From: an uncultured Gammaproteobacteria bacterium
GTDB taxonomy: Bacteria; Patescibacteriota; Patescibacteriia; Magasanikbacterales; UBA922
Direction: 5' to 3'
Assembly (NCBI GenBank): GCA_964435035.1
Contig: CAYSXR010000001.1
Location: forward strand, 55,259-119,258
DNA: 64,000 nucleotides
The notes under the pieces were generated by a model. The model saw only the letters and a program-made list of their open reading frames with translations. It searched no databases and was not told the DNA's origin. Position 1 is the first letter of the stretch, and every line of letters begins with the position of its first letter. The translations under genes and the position numbers were made by a program. Below are positions 3,098 through 25,810 of this stretch, one piece after another.

Positions 3098-3121
3098 GAA
3101 AATAGTAGTGTATAGATTATT

Positions 3122-3330
3122 AAAAAACACCCTATTCGGGTGTTTTTTAATGTGTCCATTTGGGATATCCCTCTCGGATACCCAGCAGGCATGTCTATTT
3201 TGGTGCACACCCTCAGTCCAGAATTTTTCATCTACAGTCAACCATGGGCTTTTTCGAGGTAGTTTTAAAGGGTAGGGGAACCCGTCTCGGTCGGGGGTCA
3301 ATTTTTATTAAAATGAGACAAATGAGACAC
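3122..3330. repeat. Dispersed ~200-bp repeat, copy A (begins with the AAAAACACCC-loop-GGGTGTTTTT terminator hairpin; ends with tandem AATGAGACA x2)
   Basis: Near-identical to 13602-13804 over the 3' ~150 bp and related to 11646-11846. The hairpin aaaaaacaccctattcgggtgtttttt lies at 3122-3148. Confidence 0.65.
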
Positions 3331-3332
3331 CG

Positions 3333-3360
3333 CATGACTCTTACTAAGAGTCATGTTTTT
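3333..3360 (+). terminator. Hairpin catgactctt-ac-taagagtcatg followed by TTTTT
   Basis: Perfect 10-bp inverted repeat plus a T-tract, seen directly. Confidence 0.45.
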
Positions 3361-3371
3361 AATACTCAAAT

Positions 3372-3421
3372 TTGACATTGCAAATGAATTGCAGTAATAT
3401 ATATTGAAACTCATTTGCAAT
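3372..3421 (+). promoter_or_regulatory. Consensus sigma70-type promoter (TTGACA-17-TAATAT) overlapped by a 10-bp perfect inverted repeat (ttgcaaatga...tcatttgcaa), a likely operator
   Basis: TTGACA at 3372-3377, a 17-bp spacer, TAATAT at 3395-3400. The IR arms are at 3378-3387 and 3411-3420. The RBS and ATG of the downstream gene are at 3455. Confidence 0.45.
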
Positions 3422-3454
3422 TAGCAAATAAGCACGCAAGGAGAATAAGGAAAC

Positions 3455-3817
3455 ATGTCGCAGGGAAAAACGGCTGTAGTAGAAAAGATCGGCACCTTCG
3501 CAAGTATTCTGTGTCTGATTCACTGTCTAGGGCTTGCCATACTGACTCCTCTGATTCCAGTACTCGGTGTTCTCGCCCACAACGAATGGATCGAAATCCT
3601 GTTCTGGGGTGTGGCACTGGCAACTGCCCTCTGGCAAATCTTCCAGACGTGTGGTTGGTTGAGAATCGTATTTATCGGAGCAAGTATCACGGGAACCGTA
3701 GGACTCGCAATCGATGAGCATCTTCTGCTGCATCTAGGCTTCGCGGGAATCGCGCTGGGGCAAATTGTCCTTTTACAAAGAAGGAAAGCAGCACACACGT
3801 GCTCGCATGATCATTGA
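3455..3817 (+). CDS. Small polytopic membrane protein with CxxxC in TM1 and a His/Cys-rich C-terminus (HTCSHDH). Possibly a metal-ion transport or binding protein (MerC/MerT-like guess). GC about 50%, so atypical for this window
   Basis: About four hydrophobic segments, CLIHC and C-terminal HxCxHxH. GC is much higher than the neighbours. Followed by a GC-rich hairpin at 3822-3858. Confidence 0.45.
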   Translation: MSQGKTAVVEKIGTFASILCLIHCLGLAILTPLIPVLGVLAHNEWIEILFWGVALATALWQIFQTCGWLRIVFIGASITGTVGLAIDEHLLLHLGFAGIALGQIVLLQRRKAAHTCSHDH

Positions 3818-3870
3818 CTAGGGGATCGGGAGCGTCCTAACGCGTTCCCGATCTCTACCTAACTATATTT

Positions 3871-4833
3871 ATGAAAATAGCATTTGTCGGAAAAGGAGGA
3901 AGCGGGAAAAGTACGGTAACGGGACTTTTCTTAAAGTTTTTAACTGAACAGAAAAAGCATTGGCTTTGTATTGATGCAGACATCAATATGCACATGAGTG
4001 GGTTATTGGGTGTAGCGCTTTCCCGAGAAAAAGCATTGTCACTTGAGAGTAATGAAAGGGGTGTAAAAGCATATATCCGTGGAAACAATACTCGTATTAG
4101 TAGTCCTGGACATATCGTTAAAACAACTCCACCGACCAGAGAATCTAATTTTTTATATATCACTCCTACACATGAATTAATTCGTTCATATGCAACGTCC
4201 GTAGGAGAATACGGACATCTGATGCATGTGGGAACCTACGAAGAAGAGGGTATTGGTGAGAGTTGTTATCACACAAATCTAGCAGTGTTTGAAGCTCTTA
4301 TTTCGCATACGATTACCGATGAACAGCATGTTTGTGTCGCAGACATGACCGCAGGAACCGATGCATTTGCCGGGTCACTTCATGCGTCCTTTGATCTGGT
4401 ATGTCTCGTAGTTGAGCCGACTGCCGAAAGCGTGAGCCTGGCTCGAGAATATCTCTCATTGGCTGAGTCAGGAAAAGTTTTGAAATATATCTGCATTATC
4501 GGAAATAAAATCGAAGACGATGAGGATGTTGCGTATATAGAAGCGGAGCTCGGACACAGAGTACTATGCACCATACCATTGCTTAAAAAATTAAAAACAT
4601 TCCGGAGAGAAGGAAAAAATGTATTTGAACTGGATTTAGATGAGAGTATTTTATTTTCTGAAATTATAAAAAAGGCAGCTCAAAACATGGTGAGTATTAA
4701 TGAGCGTCTCAAATTACTCTTTGATCTGCATCGAAAGCACTCCCAAGCTGATTATATTATCAATCGACATGGTGATCTGAGTGTACAAATTGATGAATCA
4801 TTTTCATATACTGATCTGTCGTATGAAAGATAA
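3871..4833 (+). CDS. P-loop ATPase of the MinD/ParA/CooC superfamily (deviant Walker A VGKGGSGKST)
   Basis: N-terminal KGGxGKS[T] motif and a length of 320 aa. Confidence 0.55.
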   Translation: MKIAFVGKGGSGKSTVTGLFLKFLTEQKKHWLCIDADINMHMSGLLGVALSREKALSLESNERGVKAYIRGNNTRISSPGHIVKTTPPTRESNFLYITPTHELIRSYATSVGEYGHLMHVGTYEEEGIGESCYHTNLAVFEALISHTITDEQHVCVADMTAGTDAFAGSLHASFDLVCLVVEPTAESVSLAREYLSLAESGKVLKYICIIGNKIEDDEDVAYIEAELGHRVLCTIPLLKKLKTFRREGKNVFELDLDESILFSEIIKKAAQNMVSINERLKLLFDLHRKHSQADYIINRHGDLSVQIDESFSYTDLSYER

Positions 4834-4837
4834 TCAG

Positions 4838-6250
4838 ATGTTACAGTTATCTCCAAGAATACACTCGCACATTGGGGAATATCTGAGTGACTCTACACGA
4901 GTGCGAAGCGTGTATGAAAAGGCGGGAGGAGCAGTGAATATCGTATTCCCTGAGATTATTGTTGAAAATTATCAGAAATTCAGACAGGTGTGTGAAGAGC
5001 GAGGTGTGAGGCATCAGATCCAATATGCACATAAACCAAATAAATCATCGGCTCTGGTTAGTGCTCTCGCACATATTCCTAGCGCACGGATTGATGTGGC
5101 ATCATCGGGTGAGCTTGAGTCGGCGATTCGCGCAGGATTTGAAGGAATACGAATTTCGGGTGGTGGACCCAAGAACAGACATTATATCTCTTCGTTGATT
5201 AAGGTAGACGCTTCAATTGTCGTGGATAGTATGAGTGAACTCAATGCAGTTATTCAAGAAGTTAAACTGCAACAGAAATGGCAATATCCTGTACTCATGC
5301 GTCTTAATGTGGATAGTATTCTCTCAACCGGTACGGAAAGCAGGTTTGGGATACTCACTCATGAAATCGAAACAGTACTAGAAATCATGGTGAGAGAAAA
5401 AGAATATGTACAGTTTAGAGGGTTTGCTTTTCATATCAATGCAGATGCAAAAAAATTACGGAAACCAATGCTTGAACAAACGCTTGCGTATACCCTGAAT
5501 GCACTTAATCGAGGTCTTCACCCAACAGAGATAAATATCGGCGGAGGATTTGGAGTGAATTATTGCAGCTCGGAAACTGAATGGAATACGTTCACCACTG
5601 CATTAATTGAATCAGTTCAAACGCAGTACAATCATCTGGGATGGAATAAGTCAGGATTAGGATATTGGAGTGAGCAGCGTGTGCTTCGTGGGAGTCCACA
5701 GTTTGCTCCTCAGTATAAAGGAGAAGATCAGTATGAAGAACTCTCCTCGTTTCTTGACGATACAATAGAGAGTTATCGCGCATCTGTAGGAGAGGTGCTT
5801 GCTGATCACATGCTCACACTTGTGATTGAGCCAGGACGTGCACTCCTCGATTCAGTAGGAATTACGGTAACGGAGATCGTGGATAAAAAACATTCATCAT
5901 TCGGTAATAATGTACTTATTGTCGACATGAATCGATCTCAATTGGGAGGGAGTGATCAGATGTATATGGTTGATCCGGTAGTTATTTCCGACGATGAGTC
6001 ACCCAAAGAATACAAGTCATTCGCCACATTTATCGCAGGAAACTTATGTATGAAAAGCGATATGATTGCGAGACGAAAAATATATATGCCCTATGAGCCT
6101 CATTGTGGAGATCTACTCATATTCATAAACACGGCAGGATATTTTATGGATTTTACGGAAAGCCACATGCTCATGCAGCCGATCGCTCCCAAATATGTCG
6201 CATATCTTACCAACGGTGCCTGGGAAAGTATTGAAGATATGAAAATATAA
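4838..6250 (+). CDS. PLP-dependent decarboxylase, Orn/DAP/Arg decarboxylase family 2 (alanine-racemase fold)
   Basis: TIM-barrel N-terminal region and a C-terminal '...FIAGNLCMKSDMIA...GDLLIFINTAGY' pattern typical of DAP/ODC-type decarboxylases. The ATG at 4838 is preferred over the overlapping 4781 start. Confidence 0.5.
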   Translation: MLQLSPRIHSHIGEYLSDSTRVRSVYEKAGGAVNIVFPEIIVENYQKFRQVCEERGVRHQIQYAHKPNKSSALVSALAHIPSARIDVASSGELESAIRAGFEGIRISGGGPKNRHYISSLIKVDASIVVDSMSELNAVIQEVKLQQKWQYPVLMRLNVDSILSTGTESRFGILTHEIETVLEIMVREKEYVQFRGFAFHINADAKKLRKPMLEQTLAYTLNALNRGLHPTEINIGGGFGVNYCSSETEWNTFTTALIESVQTQYNHLGWNKSGLGYWSEQRVLRGSPQFAPQYKGEDQYEELSSFLDDTIESYRASVGEVLADHMLTLVIEPGRALLDSVGITVTEIVDKKHSSFGNNVLIVDMNRSQLGGSDQMYMVDPVVISDDESPKEYKSFATFIAGNLCMKSDMIARRKIYMPYEPHCGDLLIFINTAGYFMDFTESHMLMQPIAPKYVAYLTNGAWESIEDMKI

Positions 6251-6253
6251 TAT

Positions 6254-7588
6254 ATGAAATATACACACATTACGGAAATAATCGGAAACACTCCACTCTT
6301 GGAAATAGATGCTACTATTCATGGAATTCCAAACCTTACTTTATACGCAAAACTCGAATACATGAATCCATTCGGTTCAGTAAAAGACCGTGCAGTGTGG
6401 GGTATGCTTCGGGACGATATTAGTGATCTAAAAGATAAACAGAAAACAATCATTGAAATGTCGAGTGGGAATACGGCAAAAGCAATTCAGGGAATTGCAA
6501 GTACGTTTGGAATACCGTTTAAAACTATTACCAATCGAATCAAGGTGGATGAAGTGAGAGATATTTTACAGATCATGGGAGCCGTGATCGAAGAATTGCC
6601 AGGGAAAAGTGATTGTCATGATCCGAATGACCCAAATGATCCTCTGGTGTATATTCACCGTGAACTCGAACTGGATGCGGACAAGAAGTTTTTTACGTCT
6701 CAGTATAACAATCAAAAAAATTTAGATGAGCATTACCGAACCACGGGAGAGGAAATTATGCGTGACCTTCCGAAAGTGGATTATTATTTCGCAGGACTCG
6801 GCACGACTGGCTCATCTCGCGGCCCGGCATCAAAGATCAAAGAACGTGATCATGATCTAAAGACGATTGGGGTCGTTGCTGCTAAAAATGATTATATTCC
6901 AGGCATTAGAACAAAAGATGAGATTCACGAGGTGGGGTTACTTGATCCTACGTTTTATGAAGAAATTATACCTATAGATTCGCTCAGTGCTCTCAAAGGA
7001 TCACTTCAATTAATACGCAAAGCAGGAGTTATGAGTGGTCCAACAGGGGGAGCGGTATACCAAACTGCAATTGAGTATTTCAAAAAGCATCCGCCCCAAG
7101 AGAAAACAGTAGTGGTATTTATTGTATGCGATCGAGTAGAGTGGTATGTATCATATATCAAAAAACGCATGCCTGAGTTGTGGGGTAATAGTAAAAAACT
7201 ATCATGGAAAGATAGTGGTCTTGAAATCATGTCTCCTAAAGAACTCTCTATCTCTTCTCGTGAATTACATGAGACACTCCATGATCCCTCAGTCATGATT
7301 GTGGATATGCGAACACCACGTGCATTTGCAGCAGCACATATACGGGGTTCGATGAATATGCCCTTTGAGTATCTTGATAGCATGTTTGAGGAAGATGCGA
7401 TGCCTTTTGGAATCGGGAAAAAGATAATTATCGTATGCGCTGTCGGAAGAAAATCGCTCATGGTAACTAATTATCTGAGAAATAAAGGTGTAGACGCACG
7501 ATCGCTTACTAATGGTATTACTGCCTGGAGTATTGAGGGATTTGAGATGTGCAAAACAGATCATGAAGCTTGTGTGCGATCAGTTTAA
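6254..7588 (+). CDS. Fold-type II PLP enzyme (cysteine synthase/CBS-like) fused to a C-terminal rhodanese domain
   Basis: N-terminal IGNTPL...KLEYMNPFGSVKDR (PLP-lysine motif) and C-terminal AHIRGSMN...IVCAVGRKS (rhodanese CxxGxR active-site loop). Confidence 0.55.
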   Translation: MKYTHITEIIGNTPLLEIDATIHGIPNLTLYAKLEYMNPFGSVKDRAVWGMLRDDISDLKDKQKTIIEMSSGNTAKAIQGIASTFGIPFKTITNRIKVDEVRDILQIMGAVIEELPGKSDCHDPNDPNDPLVYIHRELELDADKKFFTSQYNNQKNLDEHYRTTGEEIMRDLPKVDYYFAGLGTTGSSRGPASKIKERDHDLKTIGVVAAKNDYIPGIRTKDEIHEVGLLDPTFYEEIIPIDSLSALKGSLQLIRKAGVMSGPTGGAVYQTAIEYFKKHPPQEKTVVVFIVCDRVEWYVSYIKKRMPELWGNSKKLSWKDSGLEIMSPKELSISSRELHETLHDPSVMIVDMRTPRAFAAAHIRGSMNMPFEYLDSMFEEDAMPFGIGKKIIIVCAVGRKSLMVTNYLRNKGVDARSLTNGITAWSIEGFEMCKTDHEACVRSV

Positions 7589-7589
7589 T

Positions 7590-8177
7590 ATGTACAGATT
7601 GATCACAAAGATCATAGAGAACACGAGACAGCGAATATATACAAAAAGACGTAAACGCTTTGCATCTTTTTTCAATCTTTCCTCTGCTCATTCACTTTTG
7701 GATATTTCCTGTGGCAATGGCGATGAATTGAGGGCACTCCATATAGCTGCTCCGAATATCCAGTTTCACGGTATAGATATGTCAAAAAGCTGTATCAATA
7801 AGGCAAAAGAAAAATACCCCTGGTGTTCGTTTACCGTCGGGTTAGCCGAGGCTCTGCCGTATGGAAAGAGTCGATTCGACGCCATCCTTTCCTGCATGGC
7901 ACTACATCACTACCAAAAACCTGTAGAAGTGTATAAAGAAGTAGCTCGAGTAATGTCTCTAGGTGGGTCATTCTATATTATAGACACCATACCATCAGGG
8001 AGAATATTCCAATGGTTGTATAATCTGGATGCATGTGATGAACCGTATCATTTTGAAAGGTATTGTACTGAGTATGATATACAAAAATTTGCAGAGAGTG
8101 CAGGATTGTATGTTACGAGTATAGTACCTATGAGAAAATTTGATTCAACCAAAATAGTAACACTGCGGAAACTGTAA
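7590..8177 (+). CDS. Class I SAM-dependent methyltransferase
   Basis: LDISCGNGDE (motif I) and a methyltransferase type-11-like layout. The ATG at 7590 lies just after the upstream stop. Confidence 0.5.
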   Translation: MYRLITKIIENTRQRIYTKRRKRFASFFNLSSAHSLLDISCGNGDELRALHIAAPNIQFHGIDMSKSCINKAKEKYPWCSFTVGLAEALPYGKSRFDAILSCMALHHYQKPVEVYKEVARVMSLGGSFYIIDTIPSGRIFQWLYNLDACDEPYHFERYCTEYDIQKFAESAGLYVTSIVPMRKFDSTKIVTLRKL

Positions 8178-8335
8178 TTGAACGTAAATGCTATGATATA
8201 CTGTATAAATCTCTAACAATTTTTTATGTGCATGGGGTGTGATCTTATAAAACAAGAAATTGCACAAGGTCCGTCGACCATAAGGTAGCTCCCGTAGGGT
8301 ATTCAAATGAAAAGAGAATAGATAAACCTTGTAGT

Positions 8336-9097
8336 GTAATAGTTGACCCAGAGAGAATGCATACCGTAAGGCAAATATTTGAGAAAGTTGCGTACGAAGG
8401 ATGGAGTGGAAGAAAGGTGTATCTGTGGCTCAAGGAAATTAATTTCAAATCAAGAACAGGGAAATATATTACCGTCTCAAATTTATTCACGATTCTCAAA
8501 AACACCTTTTACTATGGTGTTTTTGAATATCCGACCGGGAGTGGCACATGGTACACCGGCAAATATGAATCACTGATTACAAAAGAGTTATTCGACAGAG
8601 TACAGCAGGTACTCAAAGAACATCAAACTAATGCAACCATGAAGAAGAACAAAGAATTCGCATTCACCAGAATGATGACCTGTGGAAATTGTGGTTCAGG
8701 AATCACTGCTGATGAAAAATTCAAACATCAGCAGAATGGGAATGTACATAGGTATGTATATTATGTATGTACGAGGAGTAAAGACCAAAACTGTAGGGGA
8801 GTGAGTATGAATGAAAATGAGGTGATAAAGCAACTAATTGAGATAATAGATAAGGTGAGTCTAGATAAATTAGGAATCAAGCAGAAGCTTGAAGCTGAGT
8901 TGGATCGGTATAGTCAGTTTAGGTATGCAGTGCTTGGGTTAGAGGAGAAGGAATTAGAGAAAAAGAAAGGTGTAGATATGAAGAAGTATGCAAAGTATAT
9001 ATTAGAAAAAGGAGGAGTTCAGGAGAAAAGAGAGTTATTTTTTAATATTAAGAATAAACTAGAATTAAAAGAAAATAAGATAATTTTGAAAACATAA
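8336..9097 (+). pseudogene. 5'-truncated large serine recombinase: recombinase domain, zinc ribbon and coiled-coil are present, but the N-terminal resolvase catalytic domain is absent
   Basis: ERMHTVRQIFEKVAYEGWSGRKVYLWLKE...ILKNTFYYGVFEY matches the recombinase domain. CGNCGS...YYVCTRSKDQNCRG matches the zinc ribbon. The frame is closed by a stop at 8333 with no catalytic Ser domain upstream. Confidence 0.55.
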
Positions 9098-9172
9098 ATA
9101 AGAACTTCTTATAGTCAACTTTGATTGACCAGACTGGTAGGGCGTAGTAGAATCCAGAGTATAATATAAGAT

Positions 9173-11038
9173 ATGTTCTTAAAAAAGATAGTGATTGTTA
9201 ATTTTAAAAGTTGCAGAATTATCGTCCAGGATTTTTCTGAAGATAAGCCGAATATATACATAGGACCAAATGATTCAGGTAAGAGCGTTATTCTTGAGTC
9301 TATAGGTTGCATACTCAATAACAAGAAATTGGATTTTGAGTCAACAGGGAAGATAACTTCGGATGTCTCTAATACTCCAATTGATGAGTTACAATTTAAT
9401 AATTTATTCGTCACACTAAATCTTCCTATTTTTAAGTATGACCCGACATCGATTTATATAATTGGTTTTTTTGAATGTGAAGAATCAGATTCAAAAGAAT
9501 TTTTTGATGAAAATGCATCTAATCATCTTAAATGGAGTAGAGAAAGTTTTTCAGGTAATGATATAGTAATTTTAAAAAAATACTGTATTCAGCAAGAAAA
9601 TGGAGCTACTTTTTTATGTACGAAAGATAGTACTGATCCTTCGACCACTAAAGAATTGTGGAAACAGACTAAAACTGTTCTTGCAGGACTGACAAAGCAA
9701 TTAGGTATCGAAAAAGACGAAATTGATAATGAAAATGGAACTGGACCATTCAAAAATATAGAAGTACTCAGAGCTATTTATGCGAAAAGTGTAACTGAAT
9801 TGTGTTGGAGTGAATATCTTGATTATACTAAGGATTTAAAGACACTGTTCCCCATATTCAGATACTTTGATGCTAAAATTTCAATGGATGATGTAAAATC
9901 TATAGCTAAAGATACTTTGGCGGAAAAAATAGCCCCACATAAAGAAAAAATTGCTAAAGAAGCTGAAAAGATTAGTAAGGATGTAAGCGATGAAATAAAC
10001 AAGGATCTAAAAGAATTATCTGAAAAATTATTTGCAGATTTAGACTCGGTAAAAAGTATACAAATGGGGGTTAATTTTAATATACAGGAAAATATTTCAG
10101 ATGTTATTGTTCAAAAGTCTTCTAGTGATGGTGACATCAAATTAGATTCGCAGGGTGATGGTATTAAAAAACAAATATGGCTTGCCTTAATAAAATGGAA
10201 AAGCATGCAATCTATAAATGAGGGAGAGAAAAGCAAAAAAATGATTTGGTGTTTTGACGAGCCTGAAATACATTTATTTCCAAAAGCACAACGAAATTTA
10301 TTCACTGATATTAAAAATATATCAAAAGGAGTAGTTCAAAGTTTTGTCTGTACACATTCAACGATTTTTATTGATAAATTCGATATTGATTCAATACGAT
10401 TAGTTTCTCTTGAAAATCAATATTCTGTAGTATCTTCTTGTAAAGATGTTTCTGATATCCACTCTTCTTTATGTGTTAAAAATAGCGATATACTATTTCA
10501 TGATAAATTTTTTGTGGTCGAGGGTGAGACTGACATGCTCTTAATGCCACATTTTTATAAACTACACTTTGGTAGAGATATCAAAGAAGATAATATTCAA
10601 TTAATACATCTAGGGGGTAAAGATAATAGAAAGAAAAACTTAGAAATTTTTAACCAAATTTTGGAAGGTTTTAAGAAGCAAGATGATCTTGTTAATTATT
10701 TTTTCGATGGGGACTCGGCAATTCCTGCTACTGATAATGTATGTGTGATAGGTAGGTATGATATGGAGGATAGTATTTCTGATGAAATTTGGGTAAAACT
10801 TGTGAAAGAATCTTGTGATTTTGATATAACCACCTCTGATTTGCAAGAAATAAGAAGTTGTTTGGGCACCGAGCGTGATAAAAAATTTCATAAGTTATTA
10901 TCTAATCTTCTTGCGTCTAAGAATTCTCCAAAGTATTTACCGTCGAAAGGGCAAACTTTGGCTAATGAGTTAATTAAAATAATAAAGGCCGAACATGTGC
11001 CTAAAGAAATTTTAGAATTCTTTAAAAAAATAAAATAG
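9173..11038 (+). CDS. OLD-family ATP-dependent nuclease (ABC-type ATPase plus C-terminal Toprim), with a GajA/class-2 OLD-like architecture
   Basis: Walker A GPNDSGKS near the N-terminus, Walker B IWCFDEPEIHLF, Toprim VVEGETD plus DGDS. 621 aa, about 27% GC. Confidence 0.65.
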   Translation: MFLKKIVIVNFKSCRIIVQDFSEDKPNIYIGPNDSGKSVILESIGCILNNKKLDFESTGKITSDVSNTPIDELQFNNLFVTLNLPIFKYDPTSIYIIGFFECEESDSKEFFDENASNHLKWSRESFSGNDIVILKKYCIQQENGATFLCTKDSTDPSTTKELWKQTKTVLAGLTKQLGIEKDEIDNENGTGPFKNIEVLRAIYAKSVTELCWSEYLDYTKDLKTLFPIFRYFDAKISMDDVKSIAKDTLAEKIAPHKEKIAKEAEKISKDVSDEINKDLKELSEKLFADLDSVKSIQMGVNFNIQENISDVIVQKSSSDGDIKLDSQGDGIKKQIWLALIKWKSMQSINEGEKSKKMIWCFDEPEIHLFPKAQRNLFTDIKNISKGVVQSFVCTHSTIFIDKFDIDSIRLVSLENQYSVVSSCKDVSDIHSSLCVKNSDILFHDKFFVVEGETDMLLMPHFYKLHFGRDIKEDNIQLIHLGGKDNRKKNLEIFNQILEGFKKQDDLVNYFFDGDSAIPATDNVCVIGRYDMEDSISDEIWVKLVKESCDFDITTSDLQEIRSCLGTERDKKFHKLLSNLLASKNSPKYLPSKGQTLANELIKIIKAEHVPKEILEFFKKIK

Positions 11039-11047
11039 GTTTAAACT

Positions 11048-11587
11048 GTGAAAGAAAAGAATTTTCAAAAGATGTTTGACGTGGATAGGCTCGAGTATAA
11101 TCTGAGAATATCGTCATTATATTTAACAGCCTATGAACTCTTAAAAAGTTCAATAGTGGACAGGCTTGTTAGTTTTTTTTCAGATTTTAATTATAAAGAT
11201 GGTAAGCCTGTAAAAACACTTGAATATAAAAATGAGCTTAATAAATTTGATAAAAATGATAAATTTAGAGCTTCATGTCTATGGCTTCATGATATGAAAG
11301 CCTTAGATATGAAGGATGTAACTGAAATTCTAAAAATTAGAGAACATAGAAATGAAATTGCTCATGAACTAGCAAAATTTTTGATAGATGATACGCAAGA
11401 GATCGATATAAATAAATTCCACAGTATCAATAATTTATTAAAAAAAGTTGATGTTTGGTGGATTATTAATTTCGAGATGACTATTATGCCAGACTTTAAT
11501 ATTAATTCAGAACAAGGTGTAAATGAAGTGGAATCTGGTAATATGCTCCTTTTGGAATATTTAATATCAAAAGTTAAAATAAGTTGA
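11048..11587 (+). CDS. hypothetical protein (179 aa), probably co-transcribed with the OLD-family gene
   Basis: 9-bp gap from the upstream gene and the same AT-rich composition. No motif recognised. Confidence 0.4.
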   Translation: MKEKNFQKMFDVDRLEYNLRISSLYLTAYELLKSSIVDRLVSFFSDFNYKDGKPVKTLEYKNELNKFDKNDKFRASCLWLHDMKALDMKDVTEILKIREHRNEIAHELAKFLIDDTQEIDINKFHSINNLLKKVDVWWIINFEMTIMPDFNINSEQGVNEVESGNMLLLEYLISKVKIS

Positions 11588-11645
11588 ATAAAGTTCAAGA
11601 AATGTAATGTAGTTTTAAGGATATTCAGTAAAATTAATAACAAAA

Positions 11646-11846
11646 CAAAAACACCCGAATTCGGGTGTTTTTAGGAGGGGATGACTAGCGGTCACCCTCC
11701 AGGGTGTGTCCAACAGTGTGCACCACCACGGTCCAGATAATTACACCTACAGTCAACCAAGGGATTTTATAGGGGTATTTTTAGGTAGTGAGGGATGCCT
11801 CTCGGTCGGGGGTCAGTTTCTATGGGAAATGAGACAAATGAGACAG
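11646..11846. repeat. Dispersed ~200-bp repeat, copy B (hairpin aaaaacacccgaattcgggtgttttt at 11646-11672; ends ...aatgagacaaatgagaca)
   Basis: Shares the hairpin, the 'gatgactagcggtcaccctccaggg-gtgtccaacagtgtgc' block, 'ctacagtcaacc', 'ctctcggtcgggggtca' and the terminal tandem 9-mer with copies A, C and D. Confidence 0.6.
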
Positions 11847-11919
11847 TTTATAAGATAGGTGAAAAAGAGCTAATTTAAGCAAATTTTGCTAGGTTGAGTC
11901 AAATTATTGCATAAATACC

Positions 11920-11948
11920 TTGACAAAATCATTAATATATGGTATACT
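11920..11948 (+). promoter_or_regulatory. Consensus promoter TTGACA-17-TATACT, followed by a 10-bp perfect inverted repeat (gtacaggcac...gtgcctgtac, 12012-12057) in the leader
   Basis: Seen directly. The downstream RBS AAGGAG is at 12101 and the ATG at 12114. Confidence 0.4.
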
Positions 11949-12113
11949 CCTTTGTTGAATATTTACTATATAGTTCTTTAATAAAATCTCAGATATTACT
12001 TTAAGGTATCGGTACAGGCACGTTCTATATCAAAAATGGTATGAAGTGTGCCTGTACTTAGGCCCATATCCTTTCACGAGGTGTCACAAAGGCACCATTC
12101 AAGGAGTGAAGTC

Positions 12114-12338
12114 ATGTCCGAGACCAAGAAGAATTTCGAGAAGCGCGTGTTCGAGGCCACTGGCGTCGAGCTGTCCCAGATCCCGGTCGGAGAACCCAAC
12201 GATGCTCTGCTGCACATCATGTGCAAGAGGGGTAACGTCTACATCGTGGCGTATGGCTATCCTGACTATCAGGATGACAACGGCAACGATGTCTGGGAGT
12301 CCCGTCCGGAGAACTTCCGGGTCGTGACGCTCTCGTAG
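12114..12338 (+). CDS. Small high-GC hypothetical protein (75 aa), compositionally foreign
   Basis: Strong RBS and about 58% GC in a roughly 35% background. The hairpin ggggaaggt...accttcccc (12396-12422) lies downstream. Confidence 0.4.
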   Translation: MSETKKNFEKRVFEATGVELSQIPVGEPNDALLHIMCKRGNVYIVAYGYPDYQDDNGNDVWESRPENFRVVTLS

Positions 12339-12558
12339 TTTCAACTCTCCTAGTCCGCTAAACCCGGACGACTAGATAGGAGATCGTACAATCATGGGGA
12401 AGGTTTTTTAGTCACCTTCCCCATTGCCTCTACCGTTGAAAACGGTACTGATGAGTCCTTAACTAGAGGACGAAAGGTAAAAAGAGCCAGTCATTCTGGT
12501 CTTTTTTGTTTTAAGTTTTTCTGTTACCATAGATTTACCTTACTTAATTAAAATAAAT

Positions 12559-13581
12559 ATGGAGAGTTTTGGTCAGTATAGACCTGAGTCAGTAACTAAA
12601 AGACCTAATGATTTTAAAGAGCAGGTAAGAGTGGTGTATGAAAAGATGTTTCCTGAGATAATTAACCAAAATTTGGAAGACAGGGAAAAAATGCAGACGG
12701 ATGTTCTTGAGAGAGAGCGTGCTTTGGAAGCTAAAGACTTTTTTGATGCACTTAAAGGGTATGGTATTGATACTTCTATTATTGAGATTACTGAGAATAA
12801 TTTATTAAAAATATCTGTAAAAAATCATTTTTCAGAAAGACGGCTACCAGAAGGGTATGCGTATAAAGGTGGCGCGGCTCGGTCATTACTTTTACGGAAT
12901 TTACGAATTGACGCAAAGAATATTCCACGAGATGTCGATGTTGTTCGAATGGTAGAAAACGAACCAAACGAGGGTGACGATAATAGAGTTTCTCAAGAAT
13001 TTATGCCTGAGGATTTTGAGACGGGATATGGGGTAGAAAAGATGTTGGATCAGGACGAGTATTTTGAATCACGGGACTTAACACTCAATGAAGTTTTAGC
13101 TACCGATGAAGAAATTATAGCAACACCTACATGTGTTTTGGATAACGTGAGACGTATTATACGGATTACAGAATATGAAAAAGATGAGAATGGGAGAGTG
13201 AATTCAAAGATGCTTGCTAAAGTGCTAAGACTATATGCAGAATCAATTCATAAATATGGTGATGCACAAATTGAGGGTGTGGATGATTGGCAATTTGAAG
13301 AAGCGTTTATCTCTCCATTTTGGTGTGCATTACAACTTGACCGAGCTTTTAATATAAATAGGCAGGTGGCGGTAGAATATATAGCACAATTAAAAGAACG
13401 TCGTCAGATTCCATTGGATATTGAAACTCCTGAACAGGCAGCTGAATATTTTCTTTCGTCAATTACAGGAAATTTTTATTATAGACATGCGGAATTAGAG
13501 AAGTTTGAATTGGAAGATAAATGGGAAGAGGAATTTGAGCGTTTACCTAAATTTGAAGGTAGTTCTCGAAGAAGTATTTAA
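12559..13581 (+). CDS. Nucleotidyltransferase of the CCA-adding/poly(A)-polymerase head-domain type (divergent)
   Basis: YKGGAARSLLLRNLRIDAKNIPRDVDVV resembles the GGaVRDxLLG...DxD head-domain signature. 340 aa, low GC. Confidence 0.35.
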   Translation: MESFGQYRPESVTKRPNDFKEQVRVVYEKMFPEIINQNLEDREKMQTDVLERERALEAKDFFDALKGYGIDTSIIEITENNLLKISVKNHFSERRLPEGYAYKGGAARSLLLRNLRIDAKNIPRDVDVVRMVENEPNEGDDNRVSQEFMPEDFETGYGVEKMLDQDEYFESRDLTLNEVLATDEEIIATPTCVLDNVRRIIRITEYEKDENGRVNSKMLAKVLRLYAESIHKYGDAQIEGVDDWQFEEAFISPFWCALQLDRAFNINRQVAVEYIAQLKERRQIPLDIETPEQAAEYFLSSITGNFYYRHAELEKFELEDKWEEEFERLPKFEGSSRRSI

Positions 13582-13601
13582 CTTATATTAAGTTAAATAT
13601 T

Positions 13602-13804
13602 AAAAAACACCCAAAAACCGGGTGTTTTTTAATGGGGGGATGACTAGCGGTCACCCTCCAGGGGGTGTGGAACAGTGTGCACACCCTCAGTCCAGAATTT
13701 TTCATCTACAGTCAACCATGGGCTTTTTCGAGGTAGTTTTGAAAGGGTAGGGGAACCCTCTCGGACGGGGGTCAATTTTTATTAAAATGAGACAAATGAG
13801 ACAC
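13602..13804. repeat. Dispersed ~200-bp repeat, copy C
   Basis: Hairpin aaaaaacacccaaaaaccgggtgtttttt, then sequence nearly identical to copy A through ...aatgagacaaatgagacac. Confidence 0.65.
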
Positions 13805-13826
13805 AGAATACTGTATTTAAATGATA

Positions 13827-13852
13827 AGCCCTCTCCTTGTTTGGAGAGGGCT
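13827..13852. terminator. Perfect 10-bp stem hairpin (agccctctcc-ttgttt-ggagagggct) at the 3' end of the minus-strand Hsp70-like gene
   Basis: Seen directly, 34 bp past the stop of the 13886-15169 (-) gene. Confidence 0.45.
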
Positions 13853-13885
13853 CTGTCTTGCCACGTGGACGCGTTTCTTGGCTTC

Positions 13886-15169
13886 TCAGCCGTTACGCGC
13901 ACCATAGGTAGCGAGACCATACGCGACTGATGCGAAGGCGTCACCTGTCACGACCTTGCCTGTTTCGGGGAACAAGTCCTTGAGCCTGCGTTGAAACGCT
14001 GGAACATGGGACGTGCCACCCGTCACGAAGACGTGGTCGATTTCGTCAGGGATGATGTCATGCTTGTCGAGGAACTTTTCCAGCTCCGAGATGATGCCAT
14101 CGATGACTTGTAAGGTATAGGCTTCGAATTCATCGCGAGTCAACGTCGTGTTGACGTCGAGGTCGTCCTCCTCGAAACGAAGCGCAGTGCTATCGGTTCC
14201 GGTGAGGTTTTTCTTTGCCTGCTCGATCTCCCTGAAGAGTTGCAGACCGTAGTTACCCTGCACGAGGGTCATGAGCCGTTTGATCGCCTTGGGATTGTCC
14301 GAATGACGTTGGATCTCGATGATCGTGTTGATCGTCTTTCGGTCCCGAAGCAGGGGGATCAGGTGCGGTCGCCGGAGTTGGTAGGTGATCGCATGCGGCA
14401 TGGGCATCACGTTGCCGAACATGCTCTTGTAGGTGCTGTTGCGCCCGAAGAGATGTGCCAACTTTTCCCACATGATGGCCGAATCGAAGTCGTCTCCTCC
14501 CAATCGAGTACCGGCTACACCGATGACGTCGATGGTTCCTGACGGCATGACTTTGGCCAGGGTGAAGTCGGATGTTCCTCCGCCGATGTCGCACACCACG
14601 ACCGTTTGAGGGTCGGTGTTGTGAAGCTTGTGGGCGTAGGCGTAGAGCGCACCGACCGGTTCTTCGCAGAGCGTAATCGGACCAAAGCCAGCTCGTGCTG
14701 CGGCTCGGGTCAAACGCTCTTTTGCGATCTGGTGCATTTCCGGATCGTTCGAGAACCTGACAGGATGTCCGAGGACCACCTCCTTAATCTCGATCCCCGT
14801 CTCATCGAGGACTCGTCGCTTCAGAAGGTTGAGGAAGGTATAGACCAAATCCTCCGCGTTCATCTGCTTGCCCTGGATGATGGTGTGGTCGAACGTTCTA
14901 CTCGACAACGTCGACTTGATCGAGCGGAGGTAGCGACCATTGTCAGGATCGTCCATGTACTCTCTGGTAGCCGCTTCTCCGATCAGGATTCGTGATGTTC
15001 CATTTTCAAAGAAAAGGACAGTTGGAGTTGAGTTTACGCGTGTATCTCCTTGAGAAAAGGTGAGGGGTACCGTAGTGGTGCCATCGCTCACGGCGACAAC
15101 AGTATTGGTGGTTCCGAAATCCAGACCGATTACCTTTTTCACTTTCTTGTTCCTTGCGTGTATGAACAA
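13886..15169 (-). CDS. Hsp70-family ATPase, nucleotide-binding domain only (YegD-like), high-GC foreign gene
   Basis: IGLDFGTTNT, VVCDIGGGTSDF, LGGDDFD and VFVTGGTSHVPAFQ match Hsp70/actin-fold NBD motifs. There is no substrate-binding domain. GC is about 57%. Confidence 0.6.
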   Translation of the reverse strand: MFIHARNKKVKKVIGLDFGTTNTVVAVSDGTTTVPLTFSQGDTRVNSTPTVLFFENGTSRILIGEAATREYMDDPDNGRYLRSIKSTLSSRTFDHTIIQGKQMNAEDLVYTFLNLLKRRVLDETGIEIKEVVLGHPVRFSNDPEMHQIAKERLTRAAARAGFGPITLCEEPVGALYAYAHKLHNTDPQTVVVCDIGGGTSDFTLAKVMPSGTIDVIGVAGTRLGGDDFDSAIMWEKLAHLFGRNSTYKSMFGNVMPMPHAITYQLRRPHLIPLLRDRKTINTIIEIQRHSDNPKAIKRLMTLVQGNYGLQLFREIEQAKKNLTGTDSTALRFEEDDLDVNTTLTRDEFEAYTLQVIDGIISELEKFLDKHDIIPDEIDHVFVTGGTSHVPAFQRRLKDLFPETGKVVTGDAFASVAYGLATYGARNG

Positions 15170-15400
15170 AAGCTACTCTAGCATAATAAGTGAAAAAATC
15201 AAGGCTAATGCTAGAATTAAGAATTTCTAGTAGATTAAGATTTTTTGGCTAGTTTATCATTGTTTTACCGATAAAAAGTTGACGAAAAGCTATGTATAAA
15301 GTATAATTTTCGTATTCTAAAGATATATGAAAAGATTGGTATTAGAAAAGTTTTTACTATGTTAACGCAATAAAACCGTCCAATTAGGCGGTTTTTCTAT

Positions 15401-17239
15401 ATGCTAAATGATAATGTTAAAAAAATAATGGTTGATACTGCTAGAAAGCATATCAAGCAAACGCAAGAAAAGATTAGCGAAGCCGTAGAAATTCAGGAGG
15501 AACGTTTGCGTACTAAAAATAAAAGAACAATTGGCTTAATGCCAAGTGATGTATTAGTTGAAGCAAAATTAACAAGTATTCTCCAAGAGCAGGTTGAACA
15601 TTTAAAGCAGCTATTTCCATCACCTTACTTTACATATTGTGAATTCGAAACAGATTCAGGAGATAACAAGAGACTGTATTTTGGAAAATTTTCATTTCGT
15701 GATCAGGATATTTATTCGTGGGTTACTCCGATTGCAACACTTCGTTTTGAACAGTTAGGTCGTGTAAGTTATAAAAGACCTGATAATGCGATTAAGCATG
15801 GAACCTTACTAAAAAGAGATCAGTATCTTATTGTTGATGGTAAATTAGTTTTTTTAGCAACTGAAGAAAAAGGAATACCAAGAGAGTTGGTATATCAAGA
15901 ACATTTTAGTCAAAAAAAAGAAGGATTCATATTGCCCGAAGTAATTGAGCAAATGGAAAAAGCCCAGGATCAGATTATCCGTGCAGGATATCGAGGCCCC
16001 TTAGTAATATCTGGCCCTGCAGGTTCTGGAAAAACAACTTTAGCTTTACATCGAGTAGCATTTTTAATGCAATCACCTGACAGTGCTGAATATTTTCCGC
16101 ATGATAAAATTTTAGTTTTTGTTCAAGATGAAAACACCAAAGATTATTTTTCACATCTCCTTCCTGAACTTGGGATTAAAGGTGTAGAGATTGTAACATT
16201 TACTGGGTGGGCATTGCAGGTATTAAGATTAAATGGTGTAGTTATCGAAAAAATAAATAATACGCAGGATACTAATCTCGAAATTTATAGGTATAATAAA
16301 TTAGAAATTCTAAAATTGGAAAAAAATATAGAGTGGAAAAAGGGAAGTCTTTTTTCTTTTTTGGATAAAGTTTACAAAAATACATTATCAGCAAAAGAGT
16401 ATAGTATTTTTGTAAAACAAAAAAAAGAAAAAAAGCTTGATCGTATTGATTTAATTTTTTTACTCACAGCAAAATATAATTCTTCAAAAGAATTTTCAGT
16501 ATTTCATGAAGTATACGAAGAATTAAAAAATGGCAGTTATCGCAAGAAGAAAATTGCACAGCCAACTCTGTATAATCTGCTCATTATTGATGAGTTTCAG
16601 AACTACCTTCCTGAAGAATTAAAAATACTGAAGTCATGTCTTAATAGTAGACTTAATTCAGTTGTCTACACGGGCGATTTCAATCAACAAGTAATTTCAG
16701 GCTCGATTAAGAATTGGAATGAAATTGATGAATTGGTGGATATTGAAAGAATGATTATTTTACAAAAAGTATATAGAAATACGAAGCAAATTTTATTATA
16801 TATTCGTTCTTTGGGATATGAAGTTAATATTCCGGAACAGTTAAAAGAGGGAGAAGAGGTTAGAGAGATTAAAACAAATAGTTGGAAAGAAGAAATTGAG
16901 TTTATCACTAGTAAAGATGAATCTCAGGATATGGTTATCGGTGTTTTAGCGTTTAATGAAAATTATCTAAAACCCTTTAAAGATTATTTTTCCAATAAAT
17001 CAAATATTCATATAATGACTATTAGTGAGTCACAGGGTGTGGAGTTTGAGTCAACATTTTTGGTAGGAATTGACGCTAGTATCTTTGATGTAAGTTTATT
17101 TCCAACACAAATGCAGGAAGAGAGAAAAAAAATGATAAAAGATTTGTTATATGTAGGCCTCACCCGTGCCATGAGTGGTATGCATGTTTGTGGTAAATAT
17201 TCTCTACGTGAACTATTTAAAGAATTTAATCCAAGTTAG
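15401..17239 (+). CDS. Superfamily-1 UvrD/Rep/HelD-like DNA helicase
   Basis: GPAGSGKTTLALHR (Walker A), LLIIDEFQNY (motif II), YVGLTRAM (motif VI), and a ~190-aa N-terminal extension as in HelD-like proteins. Confidence 0.55.
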   Translation: MLNDNVKKIMVDTARKHIKQTQEKISEAVEIQEERLRTKNKRTIGLMPSDVLVEAKLTSILQEQVEHLKQLFPSPYFTYCEFETDSGDNKRLYFGKFSFRDQDIYSWVTPIATLRFEQLGRVSYKRPDNAIKHGTLLKRDQYLIVDGKLVFLATEEKGIPRELVYQEHFSQKKEGFILPEVIEQMEKAQDQIIRAGYRGPLVISGPAGSGKTTLALHRVAFLMQSPDSAEYFPHDKILVFVQDENTKDYFSHLLPELGIKGVEIVTFTGWALQVLRLNGVVIEKINNTQDTNLEIYRYNKLEILKLEKNIEWKKGSLFSFLDKVYKNTLSAKEYSIFVKQKKEKKLDRIDLIFLLTAKYNSSKEFSVFHEVYEELKNGSYRKKKIAQPTLYNLLIIDEFQNYLPEELKILKSCLNSRLNSVVYTGDFNQQVISGSIKNWNEIDELVDIERMIILQKVYRNTKQILLYIRSLGYEVNIPEQLKEGEEVREIKTNSWKEEIEFITSKDESQDMVIGVLAFNENYLKPFKDYFSNKSNIHIMTISESQGVEFESTFLVGIDASIFDVSLFPTQMQEERKKMIKDLLYVGLTRAMSGMHVCGKYSLRELFKEFNPS

Positions 17240-24339: not shown

Positions 24340-25623
24340 TTGAAGTTTGTTAAAAAATTATTTCTTATGGAGGATCAGCCTACAGCATTAGATTATCACC
24401 TTAATAAAAAACCTCATAGAACGTATGTGAGCAAATCCTTAAAGAGAACAAATCCCGTGGACAATACCACACATTTTACGAGAATTGTTAGTAAGGTTGT
24501 CGACTGTAAGAATTTTTACGAGATGTATAAAGAAAAGAACTCAGTAGTTTTAAGGTTAAGTCCGGGAGAAAGGCAGGAAGTGATAGCGAAGGTCGATGAG
24601 GATAGTAGGGGATTTTACTTACTTATACAAAGATTTAATAAAAGATCAGGCACCCCTACTCAAGAATCTTTTTGTTTTAGGTCTGATGAATTGAAAAAGC
24701 TTTTAGACTTTATAGAATCCTTGTCAATTATTGATTTTAGTGACAAGAACAAATTTAAAATTGAGGATGCTGCATTATTAGCAGCAAAAAAATTACTCAA
24801 TGATGATCCAGATTTAGCACTAGAAATTATTCAAAATAAAATTACGAAATCTGACGTTGTTGCTCTTGCTTACCGTAAAACTCAGTTGCAGATATTTCAT
24901 AACTTGCTAAATGATGAAAGTTTTTTTGAAATGAAAAAAAACGAATGGAACAAAGCCAGAAACGAAGATGTTTGGCAGTATTTTTTTGAAGAAAATAAGT
25001 GGATTTTTGGTTATGGTCTAAACTTTGTATTTAACTCTTCTCTCGAGGGGAAAAAACTAGAGCAAGTTATTAAAGGGGCAGATTTGGAAAATGCAGGTAA
25101 ACGTGTGGACGCTCTACTCAAGACAAGAGGAATAATTAATTCCCTTTGTTTAGTTGAAATAAAAACGCATCTTACCCCGTTGTTGAAACAAGTAAAAAAT
25201 TCATATCGCTCAGCTGCATGGAGCGTCTCTGATGAATTTAATGGCGGATTGGTGCAAACACAAAAAACTTCGCAAATTGCATTGGAAAATATAAAAAACA
25301 AATTTGAAACTACAGACAATGAAGATAATCCAACTGGTGAAACGATTTATTCTTATAAACCAAAATCGTATTTGATAATAGGAAGTCACCGAGAGTTTCT
25401 GGCAGATAATGGATTCGTTAATAAAGAAAAATATTCTTCCTTTGAGTTATTTAGAAAAAATATTCTTAATCCAGAGGTAATAACTTTTGACGAATTATAT
25501 GAACGAGCTAAATTTATTGTTCATGATAATGAAAAGAGTGCAGAAAAAAAGGATGAAAGTATTGTGGAGGTAGAAGCAGAAGAGACGATAAATGAAATCA
25601 ATATAAGTGATATACCTTTTTAA
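24340..25623 (+). CDS. Protein with a C-terminal PD-(D/E)xK nuclease-like core. Possibly Shedu/DUF4263-like
   Basis: ...RVDALLKTRGIINSLCLVEIKTH...Q gives D-(x15)-E-x-K. The N-terminal 230 aa are unassigned. Adjacent to a tRNA. Confidence 0.35.
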   Translation: MKFVKKLFLMEDQPTALDYHLNKKPHRTYVSKSLKRTNPVDNTTHFTRIVSKVVDCKNFYEMYKEKNSVVLRLSPGERQEVIAKVDEDSRGFYLLIQRFNKRSGTPTQESFCFRSDELKKLLDFIESLSIIDFSDKNKFKIEDAALLAAKKLLNDDPDLALEIIQNKITKSDVVALAYRKTQLQIFHNLLNDESFFEMKKNEWNKARNEDVWQYFFEENKWIFGYGLNFVFNSSLEGKKLEQVIKGADLENAGKRVDALLKTRGIINSLCLVEIKTHLTPLLKQVKNSYRSAAWSVSDEFNGGLVQTQKTSQIALENIKNKFETTDNEDNPTGETIYSYKPKSYLIIGSHREFLADNGFVNKEKYSSFELFRKNILNPEVITFDELYERAKFIVHDNEKSAEKKDESIVEVEAEETINEINISDIPF

Positions 25624-25650
25624 AACCTATTTTAATAACTTAAATTAAAC

Positions 25651-25728
25651 AAAAACACCCAAACGGGTGTTTTAATGTGTCCTTCAGGACTATGACTAGC
25701 GGTCACCCGGGAGGGGTGTCCAACAGTG
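25651..25728. repeat. Partial copy D of the dispersed repeat (hairpin aaaaacacccaaacgggtgtttt plus the 'tgactagcggtcacccgggaggggtgtccaacagtg' block), abutting the 3' flank of tRNA-Leu
   Basis: Shares about 75 bp with copies A, B and C, then runs directly into the tRNA instead of the remainder of the repeat. Confidence 0.55.
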
Positions 25729-25810
25729 TGCTCAGGAGAGGACTCGAACCTCCAAGCCTTTCGGCGCTACCACCTCAAGGTAGTGCGTCTACCAATTTCG
25801 CCACCTGAGC
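25729..25810 (-). tRNA. tRNA-Leu (anticodon GAG), type II with long variable arm, CCA not encoded
   Basis: Reverse complement is GCTCAGGTGGCGAAATTGGTAGACGCACTACCTTGAGGTGGTAGCGCCGAAAGGCTTGGAGGTTCGAGTCCTCTCCTGAGCA. The cloverleaf folds, with anticodon loop TTGAGGT and T-loop GGTTCGAGTCC. Confidence 0.8.

Follow-up and report, generated by a model that had tools for sequence, protein, structure and literature searches.

We analysed a 64,000-nucleotide window of contig CAYSXR010000001.1, from a bacterium of the Magasanikbacterales (Patescibacteriota), and within it the interval that begins at a direct repeat, B, crosses a second copy, C, and ends at the start of an Hsp70-like gene. Right of repeat B lies a small GC-rich open reading frame (ORF) encoding 74 amino acids, with a predicted promoter, a structured leader and a terminator of its own, and with a candidate hammerhead ribozyme in its 3′ untranslated region (UTR). 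It is followed on the same strand by the gene for a 340-residue nucleotidyltransferase (NTase) and, beyond repeat C on the opposite strand, by a GC-rich gene for an Hsp70-type ATPase that consists of the nucleotide-binding domain (NBD) only (Table 1). An earlier note, made by reading the same sequence, had described the three genes and suggested that the Hsp70 and the NTase might be partners in a conflict system; the hammerhead was absent from it. We found that the interval is probably not a single system but a patchwork of three transcription units independent of one another, in an island at tRNA-Leu(gag). Its elements are all of known kinds: a hammerhead ribozyme, a moron-like cassette, a class II NTase and a YegD-like ATPase.

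The window averages 39% GC, within an AT-rich genome of the candidate phyla radiation (CPR; Patescibacteria). When compared with the 43 other ORFs of the window, whose mean GC content at third codon positions (GC3) is 32% (sd 8), the 74-aa ORF (56.9% GC, GC3 81%) and the Hsp70-like gene (54.7% GC, GC3 67%) stood out with z = 6.1 and z = 4.4, respectively. This was the composition check that the earlier note had proposed, and its label of cargo suits both genes, which are strong compositional outliers with promoter-like sites and terminators. The small ORF exists as it had been drawn, at 74 rather than 75 residues and at 57% rather than about 58% GC; likewise the opposite-strand Hsp70 gene past repeat C, without a substrate-binding domain, has 55% GC instead of 57%. 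The NTase gene, which had been called low-GC and native, has 36.4% GC and a GC3 of 25.5%.

The promoter and the leader inverted repeat attributed to the 74-aa cassette were also present. The arms of the repeat (12011-12021 and 12047-12057) give a long hairpin in a leader that folds with z = −5.5, and none of 200 shuffled sequences folded as well; in the minimum-free-energy fold, the Shine-Dalgarno sequence AAGGAG (12101-12106) is paired with an upstream CCUUU. A word-indexed search with the 74-aa protein returned only itself, and the ORF might have been taken for an orphan or for non-coding, a reading overturned by an exhaustive HMMER search. This recovered many stand-alone proteins of 69-100 aa, with 34-62% identity over the 41 that were aligned and the common pattern F..RV...TGV...IP.G..D.L.G.I.CRRG..YVV..GYPD..DEDG...W..P.NFR.V. 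Larger multi-repeat matches, ankyrin proteins aligned through a brief LLHI.C..G stretch, were judged spurious and left out. Because of the many small homologues and an AlphaFold2 model with a predicted local distance difference test score (pLDDT) of 96.9, built from the homologue alignment, we conclude that the ORF is a real gene of a conserved small-protein family. The protein has no Pfam family, its fold resembles nothing in the PDB and no viral model, and phage, plasmid and viral-contig collections gave no relatives. Its best homologue (62% identical) lies on a contig labelled Gemmatimonadales, which would be compatible with a GC-rich donor.

The hammerhead starts 87 nt past the stop codon of the 74-aa ORF, directly behind the hairpin at 12394-12424. 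Its core segments CUGAUGA (12448-12454) and GAAA (12472-12475) contain all conserved core nucleotides (C3 U4 G5 A6 N7 G8 A9; G12 A13 A14), the core-adjacent pairs are canonical (G10.1-C11.1, A15.1-U16.1, U1.1-A2.1), the NUH triplet is CUC and stem III is open. Core bases, canonical core-adjacent pairs and the NUH triplet are the published rules for accepting a hammerhead (PMC3088659). The stems are UACCGU/ACGGUA (I), GUCC/GGAC (II) and UUGCCU/AGGUAA (III), and cleavage is predicted between C12430 and U12431. When the 3′ UTR was folded, the structure of lowest free energy (z = −4.3) was the three-way junction, and shuffled windows are expected to contain the core pattern 0.07 times each. The Rfam model gave E = 0.0045 in a 4.1-kb search and 0.07 across the whole window.

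A second copy was found in another Magasanikbacteria locus, L187, where a type III hammerhead (7456-7520, 26.2 bits) lies in the order 176-aa ORF (71% GC, GC3 98%), hairpin, hammerhead, terminator and NTase homologue, with the hammerhead module about 100 nt past the 176-aa ORF. No homology was detected between the 74-aa protein and the 176-aa ORF. In this two-sequence comparison stem I reads UAGCAG/CUGCUA in L187, so that four of six pairs differ and all still pair, stem II is identical, and stem III differs yet pairs. Scaled by simple arithmetic from the Rfam values to the two intergenic stretches, the E-values are about 1e-4 and 1e-3, and their joint chance is therefore negligible. Judging from its sequence, we accept the ribozyme as real, because of the complete core, the canonical pairs, the fold and the recurrence in L187.

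Bacterial hammerheads near integrase and prophage genes have been described as flanking variable genes, and a role in the processing of long transcripts was suggested (Perreault et al. 2011, PMC3088659). The window copy resembles them in its complete core (CUGAUGA...GAAA), its three stems with III open and its NUH triplet, and also in standing beside a variable gene in an integration hotspot, where it is placed to cut an mRNA. Unlike them, it scores under the Rfam gathering threshold, is a single copy placed at the 3′ end of a one-gene cassette, where a protective hairpin precedes it and a terminator follows, belongs to a patescibacterial host and recurs upstream of a particular NTase family. 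Our literature search found no report of hammerheads in Patescibacteria or the CPR, to which this analysis adds a well-formed one. Its role appears to be architectural: it sits at the 3′ end of single-gene cassettes, with a protective hairpin before it and a terminator after it, and this placement recurs in a second genome.

The 340-aa protein had been described as resembling the head of CCA-adding enzymes and poly(A) polymerase (PAP), and this was borne out. It matched no Pfam, NCBIfam, PHROG or PADLOC model, only three of 40 family members matched Pfam, none better than E = 0.023 (E >= 0.023), and the family profile matched 1miv at E = 0.3. We found, however, that the 40 homologues have GYAYKGGAAR...PRDxDxVR and YFxTRDLTxNEVLATD in common, which are motifs A (GG...DxD) and B (RDxTxN, here RDxTxNE), with G104, G105, R108, D125, D127, R172, D173, T175 and N177 invariant or nearly so. 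The AlphaFold2 model (pLDDT 87.3) was best matched in Foldseek by class II CCA-adding enzymes and Escherichia coli poly(A) polymerase; the top eight structures were all CCA-adding enzymes or PAP I, at E-values of 1e-4 to 3e-3 and probability 1.0, with TM-scores of only 0.28-0.38. Furthermore, the 61 related clusters recovered were, where named, from Magasanikbacteria, Uhrbacteria and unclassified Patescibacteria, and no relatives were found in phage, plasmid or viral-contig collections. The protein is thus a divergent, lineage-restricted class II NTase of a family typical of Magasanikbacteria and Uhrbacteria. The names carried by its homologues place the source organism near these two groups within the Patescibacteria. 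With the solved class II CCA-adding enzymes and PAP I (PF01743; 6qy6, 1miv, 3aqm, 4x4w) it has in common the Pol-beta-type head, GG...DxD, motif B and the head-plus-neck fold; it differs from them in being only 13-19% identical, in lacking a significant Pfam match, in an extra helical N-terminus of about 90 residues and in having, apparently, (G/N)SKML for EDxxR.

The last difference was read from the weak 1miv profile alignment, in which REDALRMMR stands opposite (e)lgsKMLAK, the window protein itself reading NSKMLAK; on this alignment the EDxxR templating motif is probably missing. Motif D (EDxxR) is the amino-acid template that selects CTP and ATP, and it defines a true CCA-adding enzyme. 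With EDxxR apparently missing, the protein is probably not a standard CCA-adding enzyme. The tRNA-Leu gene does not encode CCA, so a CCA-adding enzyme must exist somewhere in the genome. The ATG of the NTase gene is preceded at a distance of a few bases by a TAAAAT hexamer, with no visible Shine-Dalgarno sequence (12511-12561); the NTase mRNA may be leaderless. The L187 homologue is 51% identical (48% in the A4 alignment), and its locus is near a tRNA gene.

The Hsp70-like protein matched Pfam HSP70 (6e-34) and DnaK NBD structures (9e-30), and its best family match was NF008673, YegD (E = 2e-52). Positions 83-445 of the 450 in this model align to residues 58-423 and reach the C-terminus, leaving out a linker and a substrate-binding domain. 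The Hsp70 motifs quoted in the earlier note are all intact and stand at invariant columns of the family alignment; D8, K76, E161, D185 and T190 are among these, and we read them as the likely equivalents of the DnaK catalytic residues D8, K70, E171, D194 and T199. The score of 178.4 bits compares with an NCBIfam equivalog cut-off of 331, and by this measure the protein is YegD-like, not a YegD orthologue; the YegD-like family of NBD-only proteins to which it belongs is widespread. YegD-like Hsp70 derivatives have been reviewed (PMC13580251), and the window protein is like the E. coli YegD family (NF008673) in its DnaK-like NBD, in a length of about 420-450 aa without linker or substrate-binding domain, and in its intact ATPase motifs (PMC13580251). 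Unlike YegD, it is 30-39% identical to proteobacterial, myxobacterial and other relatives and falls in a small clade whose GC-rich genes lie in AT-rich contigs. One member of this clade (L005), next to ndk, is 84% identical, and its DNA similarity to the window begins exactly at the start codon and is lost shortly after the stop. Two others (L006 and L090; 48-49% identical) lie in other AT-rich contexts. All four genes have 49-57% GC between flanks of 25-44%, with different neighbours, whereas distant homologues in Patescibacteria (L087 and L089) have native GC. The matches listed in a scan of GTDB genomes with the Hsp70 alignment were proteobacterial, myxobacterial and acidobacterial genes of 29-37% identity, which said nothing about synteny. 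In L087 (4216-8617) and L089 (3028-9259), the Hsp70-NBD gene is flanked by radical-SAM, NUDIX and metallophosphatase genes, which may be a conserved neighbourhood of the family. The earlier note had named two outcomes that would speak against it; one, GC-rich genes at unrelated loci, was observed for the Hsp70, and as to the other, the NTase was not shown to be the housekeeping CCA-adding enzyme.

We then considered the repeats. As the earlier note had it, B and C (77-80% identical over about 200 nt) flank the 74-aa cassette and the NTase gene, bracketing an interval of 1.96 kb. There is a third full copy, A, with a core of 64 nt identical to that of C. Full copies begin with a bidirectional terminator hairpin, continue into a core of about 130 nt and end in two tandem AAATGAGAC units, where similarity stops abruptly; directly to the right of each stands a GC-rich gene, namely a MerC-like gene (A), the 74-aa ORF (B) or the 3′ end of the Hsp70 gene (C). 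For A, B and C, Rfam gave nothing on either strand at the gathering or E-value threshold beyond terminator-like noise (IS128, RNAI, rimP), ARAGORN found no tRNA, and consensus folding of the three copies on both strands showed no convincing covariation. A transposon end was considered for the TGTCTCATT terminus and rejected, as its inverted partner is absent from the window. Hits of the 17-mer CTACAGTCAACCANGGG in 90 metagenome and 6 viral stretches were put down to chance, the similarity being confined to the 17-mer. The element copied in A, B and C consists of a terminator and a trailer and is related to the 3′ flank of tRNA-Leu. Its copies most likely mark the junctions of successive insertions, and the evidence favours the view that autonomous cassettes accumulate at such junctions.

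Tandem accretion of integrative elements at tRNA genes leaves repeated att copies, as with cis-mobilisable elements next to integrative and conjugative elements. Going by this general picture, the locus is similar in that it has several direct repeats, one of them the flank of a tRNA gene, which delimit blocks of accessory and defence genes and are accompanied by a recombinase remnant. It is different in that the common segment is the tRNA trailer and terminator rather than the 3′ part of the tRNA, in that A, B and C hold a further core of about 130 nt in place of the tRNA, and in that the sole recombinase is a truncated serine recombinase. Within the 10.3 kb from A to C (3331-13600) are the OLD nuclease, a ParA/CbiA-like ATPase and the truncated serine recombinase. 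One Logan contig, L001, runs from the right end of A into the left part of C, so that this segment may also exist in an excised circular form. Direct repeats of about 150 nt, unrelated to A, B and C and ending in tandem GTTCAC units, were also seen in L090 (1620-1770 and 2573-2720), where they flank a GC-rich 180-aa ORF. In the related contig L006 they align (4860-4970) to a terminator and to the 3′ portion of a true tRNA gene, which suggests that repeats of this type are decayed tRNA-flank copies.

Further single-gene cassettes of this build were found in the window. On the side of repeat A (3118-3870), a hairpin is followed by a TTGACA-17-TAATAT promoter bracketed by a 10-bp palindrome (TTGCAAATGA / TCATTTGCAA) and then by the MerC-like ORF and a GC-rich hairpin, matching the build of the cassette after repeat B. 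A minus-strand cassette (49690-50370) encodes a putative lipoprotein without a Pfam match; the promoter, TTGACAAAAT...TGGTTTAAT, is very like the one of the 74-aa cassette, and past the ORF come a GC hairpin (49738-49762) and a bidirectional terminator. The 201-aa ORF, also without a Pfam match, lies in a cassette (59737-60500) whose promoter is overlapped by the palindrome TTTACAC...GTGTAAA and which ends in a GC-rich hairpin of about 49 nt. These last two ORFs are sharply bounded and have near-consensus promoters together with palindromes or structured leaders. In addition, L187 contains three consecutive promoter-leader-ORF cassettes (4100-7560) with GC3 of 84%, 96% and 98% in a genome with about 57% GC; long inverted repeats are found in the leaders of two (5357-5408 and 6709-6764), and the hammerhead module closes the last. 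An integron-like arrangement was rejected: there is no integrase, attC-like sites are absent, and the cassettes are promoted individually. Morons are autonomous transcription units spread by horizontal transfer (PMC3594210), and the cassettes are like them in having their own promoter and terminator by consensus match, a single ORF, a GC content unlike that of the neighbours and related genes in varied contexts (PMC3594210). Unlike that of morons, their setting is a chromosomal island and the neighbourhood of tRNA genes, and they carry structured leaders or operator-like palindromes and, in one case, a ribozyme. A promoter and a scanned terminator were found for the 74-aa cassette; for the Hsp70 cassette, reading the sequence gave no more than a GC-rich hairpin and a weak promoter-like site, poorer than the other promoters.

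Taken together, the three units could work as follows. The strong promoter would drive a structured leader that probably masks the ribosome-binding site of a GC-rich, presumably horizontally acquired gene for the 74-aa protein. The ribozyme is expected to cut after C12430, leaving an mRNA that ends at the protective hairpin with a 2′,3′-cyclic phosphate; the terminator RNA, or read-through RNA into the next gene, would be severed and carry a 5′-OH. The NTase gene is probably transcribed on its own, and the YegD-type Hsp70 gene seems to have arrived as its own cassette on the other strand. Several points weigh against this patchwork reading. The hammerhead, at 28.3 bits, is under the Rfam gathering score of 48.5; the transcript and its self-cleavage are both predictions; and in only two of four contexts does a hammerhead stand upstream of an NTase homologue, L190 and L192 lacking it. 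A recent import predicts closer homologues in GC-rich genomes, and the best relative of the 74-aa protein is no closer than 62%; the Hsp70 clade, too, is without a closer GC-rich-genome homologue, its next matches being 37-39% identical among the matches listed. The 340-aa protein may yet have a housekeeping CCA role. The repeats were not found in other public sequence by the 17-mer search, and their three copies would fit either an integration scar or a small-RNA gene. Finally, no phage genes lie near the cassettes, whereas morons are units of prophages (PMC3594210), and the term is used here as an analogy, not as membership.

The partnership raised by the earlier note, in which the NBD-only Hsp70, the NTase and perhaps the 74-aa protein would make up a single anti-phage or conflict system, is very improbable. 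Proteins of both types occur in some published conflict systems, and the surrounding defence island also encodes Shedu, a UvrD-like helicase and an OLD-family nuclease. However, the Hsp70 and NTase genes are convergent and are parted by the NTase terminator, repeat C and the Hsp70 terminator, they differ greatly in GC and codon usage, and no NTase neighbour was present at the five Hsp70 relatives whose surroundings were read (L005, L006, L087, L089, L090), nor any Hsp70 neighbour in three distinct NTase contexts (L187-189, L190/191, L192). PADLOC was blank for the 74-aa protein and the NTase and gave the Hsp70 a motif-length match only (PDC-M61B, 38 residues, E = 0.0014), which is no convincing defence-model match. 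The missing co-occurrence in these contexts already largely refutes a conflict system, and a tempting defence-system call is removed. The adjacency of the two genes spans a repeat: two independent short-read assemblies break exactly at the 64-nt A/C core, so the 276,756-bp NCBI contig is the only source for it. Such breaks, and the sharp GC change at the ORF borders, could also be expected if GC-rich contaminant DNA had been wrongly joined. This is hardly credible, as contigs of two separate sequencing runs (L001-L004) carry the junctions of B, the 74-aa ORF and the NTase and of the Hsp70 and UvrD unbroken, each GC-rich ORF has a correctly placed AT-rich promoter, ribosome-binding site and terminator, and the pattern recurs in unrelated samples (L005, L006, L090, L187).

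An unlikely but more substantial alternative is that the hammerhead cassette and the NTase are one conserved module, the B-C interval being mobile or formerly mobile, with att-like repeats derived from the tRNA-Leu flank and an NTase that tails or repairs the ribozyme-processed RNA end. CCA-adding enzymes and poly(A) polymerase, as class II NTases, act on RNA 3′ ends, the repeats bracket exactly the cassette and the NTase gene, and the order of GC-rich ORF, hairpin, hammerhead, terminator and NTase recurs near a tRNA in L187, with an unrelated upstream ORF and an NTase that is 51% identical. Against such a module stand the two NTase contexts without a hammerhead (L190, L192), the terminator between ribozyme and NTase gene in both positive cases and the 480-nt gap between them in L187; moreover, the 5′ product of a hammerhead ends in a cyclic phosphate that an NTase cannot directly extend, there is no intact integrase, and the repeats have diverged by about 20%. 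We also doubt, a little more strongly, that the GC-rich ORFs are long-resident genes whose high GC3 is actively maintained, by selection on mRNA structure or stability or by a dedicated cassette-spreading mechanism. The four closest Hsp70 clade members are GC-rich in AT-rich contigs despite 48-84% protein identity, no closer GC-rich-genome homologue appeared in 5.8 billion proteins or, among the matches listed, in GTDB representatives, and the L187 cassette ORFs reach GC3 of 96-98% against 65-78% for that genome's own genes. Nevertheless, there are only four such loci, three of them on contigs of 2-6 kb; the GC3 of L090 (56%), compared with 75% in its close relative L006, looks partly ameliorated, as would be expected of ordinary transfer and later decay; the best homologue of the 74-aa protein bears the label of a GC-rich phylum; and donors may have been missed, the genome scan covering the matches listed. 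It is a long shot that Magasanikbacteria-type genomes carry an undescribed kind of extreme-GC3 cassette, some of them hammerhead-ended, which accumulates by the divergent NTase and tRNA-derived repeats. In its boldest version the ribozyme may define an RNA end that the NTase modifies, both being machinery of the system; if true, this would point to a role in the control of cassette expression or in RNA-mediated capture and spread of cassettes.

The patchwork reading leaves two leads, the recurring link between hammerhead cassette and NTase and the extreme GC3 that persists in cassette genes, and it defines two protein families for follow-up, a confidently folding protein of 70-80 aa and a lineage-restricted class II NTase. 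It suggests that AT-rich CPR genomes carry, genome-wide, GC3-extreme genes with sharp boundaries and promoters of their own, a pattern which bears on how reduced, host-dependent bacteria acquire and express foreign genes.

Table 1. Features of the 64,000-nucleotide window discussed in the text (window coordinates).
Feature	Position	Strand	Remarks
Repeat A	3118-3331		full copy
MerC-like membrane ORF after repeat A	3455-3817		about 50% GC; Pfam MerC 4e-07
Truncated serine recombinase, left island edge	8357-9097		Recombinase and zinc-ribbon domains remain, no others
OLD/GajA-like ATPase-TOPRIM nuclease	9173-11038		in island
Repeat B	11645-11856		about 215 nt, full copy
Terminator hairpin of repeat B	11646-11673		bidirectional; followed by hairpin region common to tRNA-Leu trailer
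Promoter of 74-aa cassette	11920-11948	+	predicted; TTGACA-17-TATACT, TG extension, 11/12 consensus positions
Structured 5′ leader	11987-12113	+	hairpins including 12080-12096
Small GC-rich ORF	12114-12338	+	74 aa (75 codons including stop)
Two 3′ UTR hairpins	12346-12383, 12394-12424	+	second with 11-bp stem, abuts ribozyme
Type III hammerhead ribozyme (candidate)	12425-12479	+	RF00008 full model 1-54, 28.3 bits
Intrinsic terminator of cassette	12486-12510	+	GCCAG-tcatt-CTGGT, then T-run
Divergent class II NTase, CCA-adding/poly(A)-polymerase head and neck	12559-13581	+	340 aa
Repeat C	13600-13813		full copy; 83% identical to A
Terminator-like hairpin past Hsp70 gene	13817-13842	-	GC-rich, AGCCCTCTCC...GGAGAGGGCT; read by eye, terminator scan silent
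Hsp70 NBD-only gene	13886-15142	-	GTG start, 418 aa, public annotation P0001; alternative TTG at 15169 gives 427 aa
Upstream region of Hsp70 gene	15190-15231	-	promoter-like TTGATT...TAGAGT; palindrome CTAGAAATTCTTAATTCTAG at 15212-15231
UvrD/HelD-like helicase	15401-17239		PADLOC GajB 1e-13; NCBIfam HelD 3e-35
Shedu-type defence protein	24340-25623		SduA_C, 8.6e-30; tRNA-Leu end of island
Partial repeat copy	25633-25734		3′ trailer and terminator of tRNA-Leu(gag)
tRNA-Leu(gag), right island edge	25728-25810	-	
Putative lipoprotein ORF	49788-50201	-	about 137 aa; up to 60% GC; signal peptide, lipobox-like Cys
201-aa ORF	59787-60392	-	58% GC; directly 3′ of tRNA-Leu(caa) 60501-60585

The island that holds the studied interval extends from about 9.1 kb to 25.64 kb at 30% GC; it is variable, rich in defence genes and anchored at tRNA-Leu(gag), and sugar-related genes also lie within it. 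No phage structural or replication domains were found among the genes examined in and around it. The OLD/GajA-like nuclease and the UvrD-type helicase are 4.3 kb apart with the studied interval in between; they may be unrelated, or a Gabija-like pair that insertions have separated. Elsewhere in the window, a single ORF of 3051 aa spans 40523-49678.

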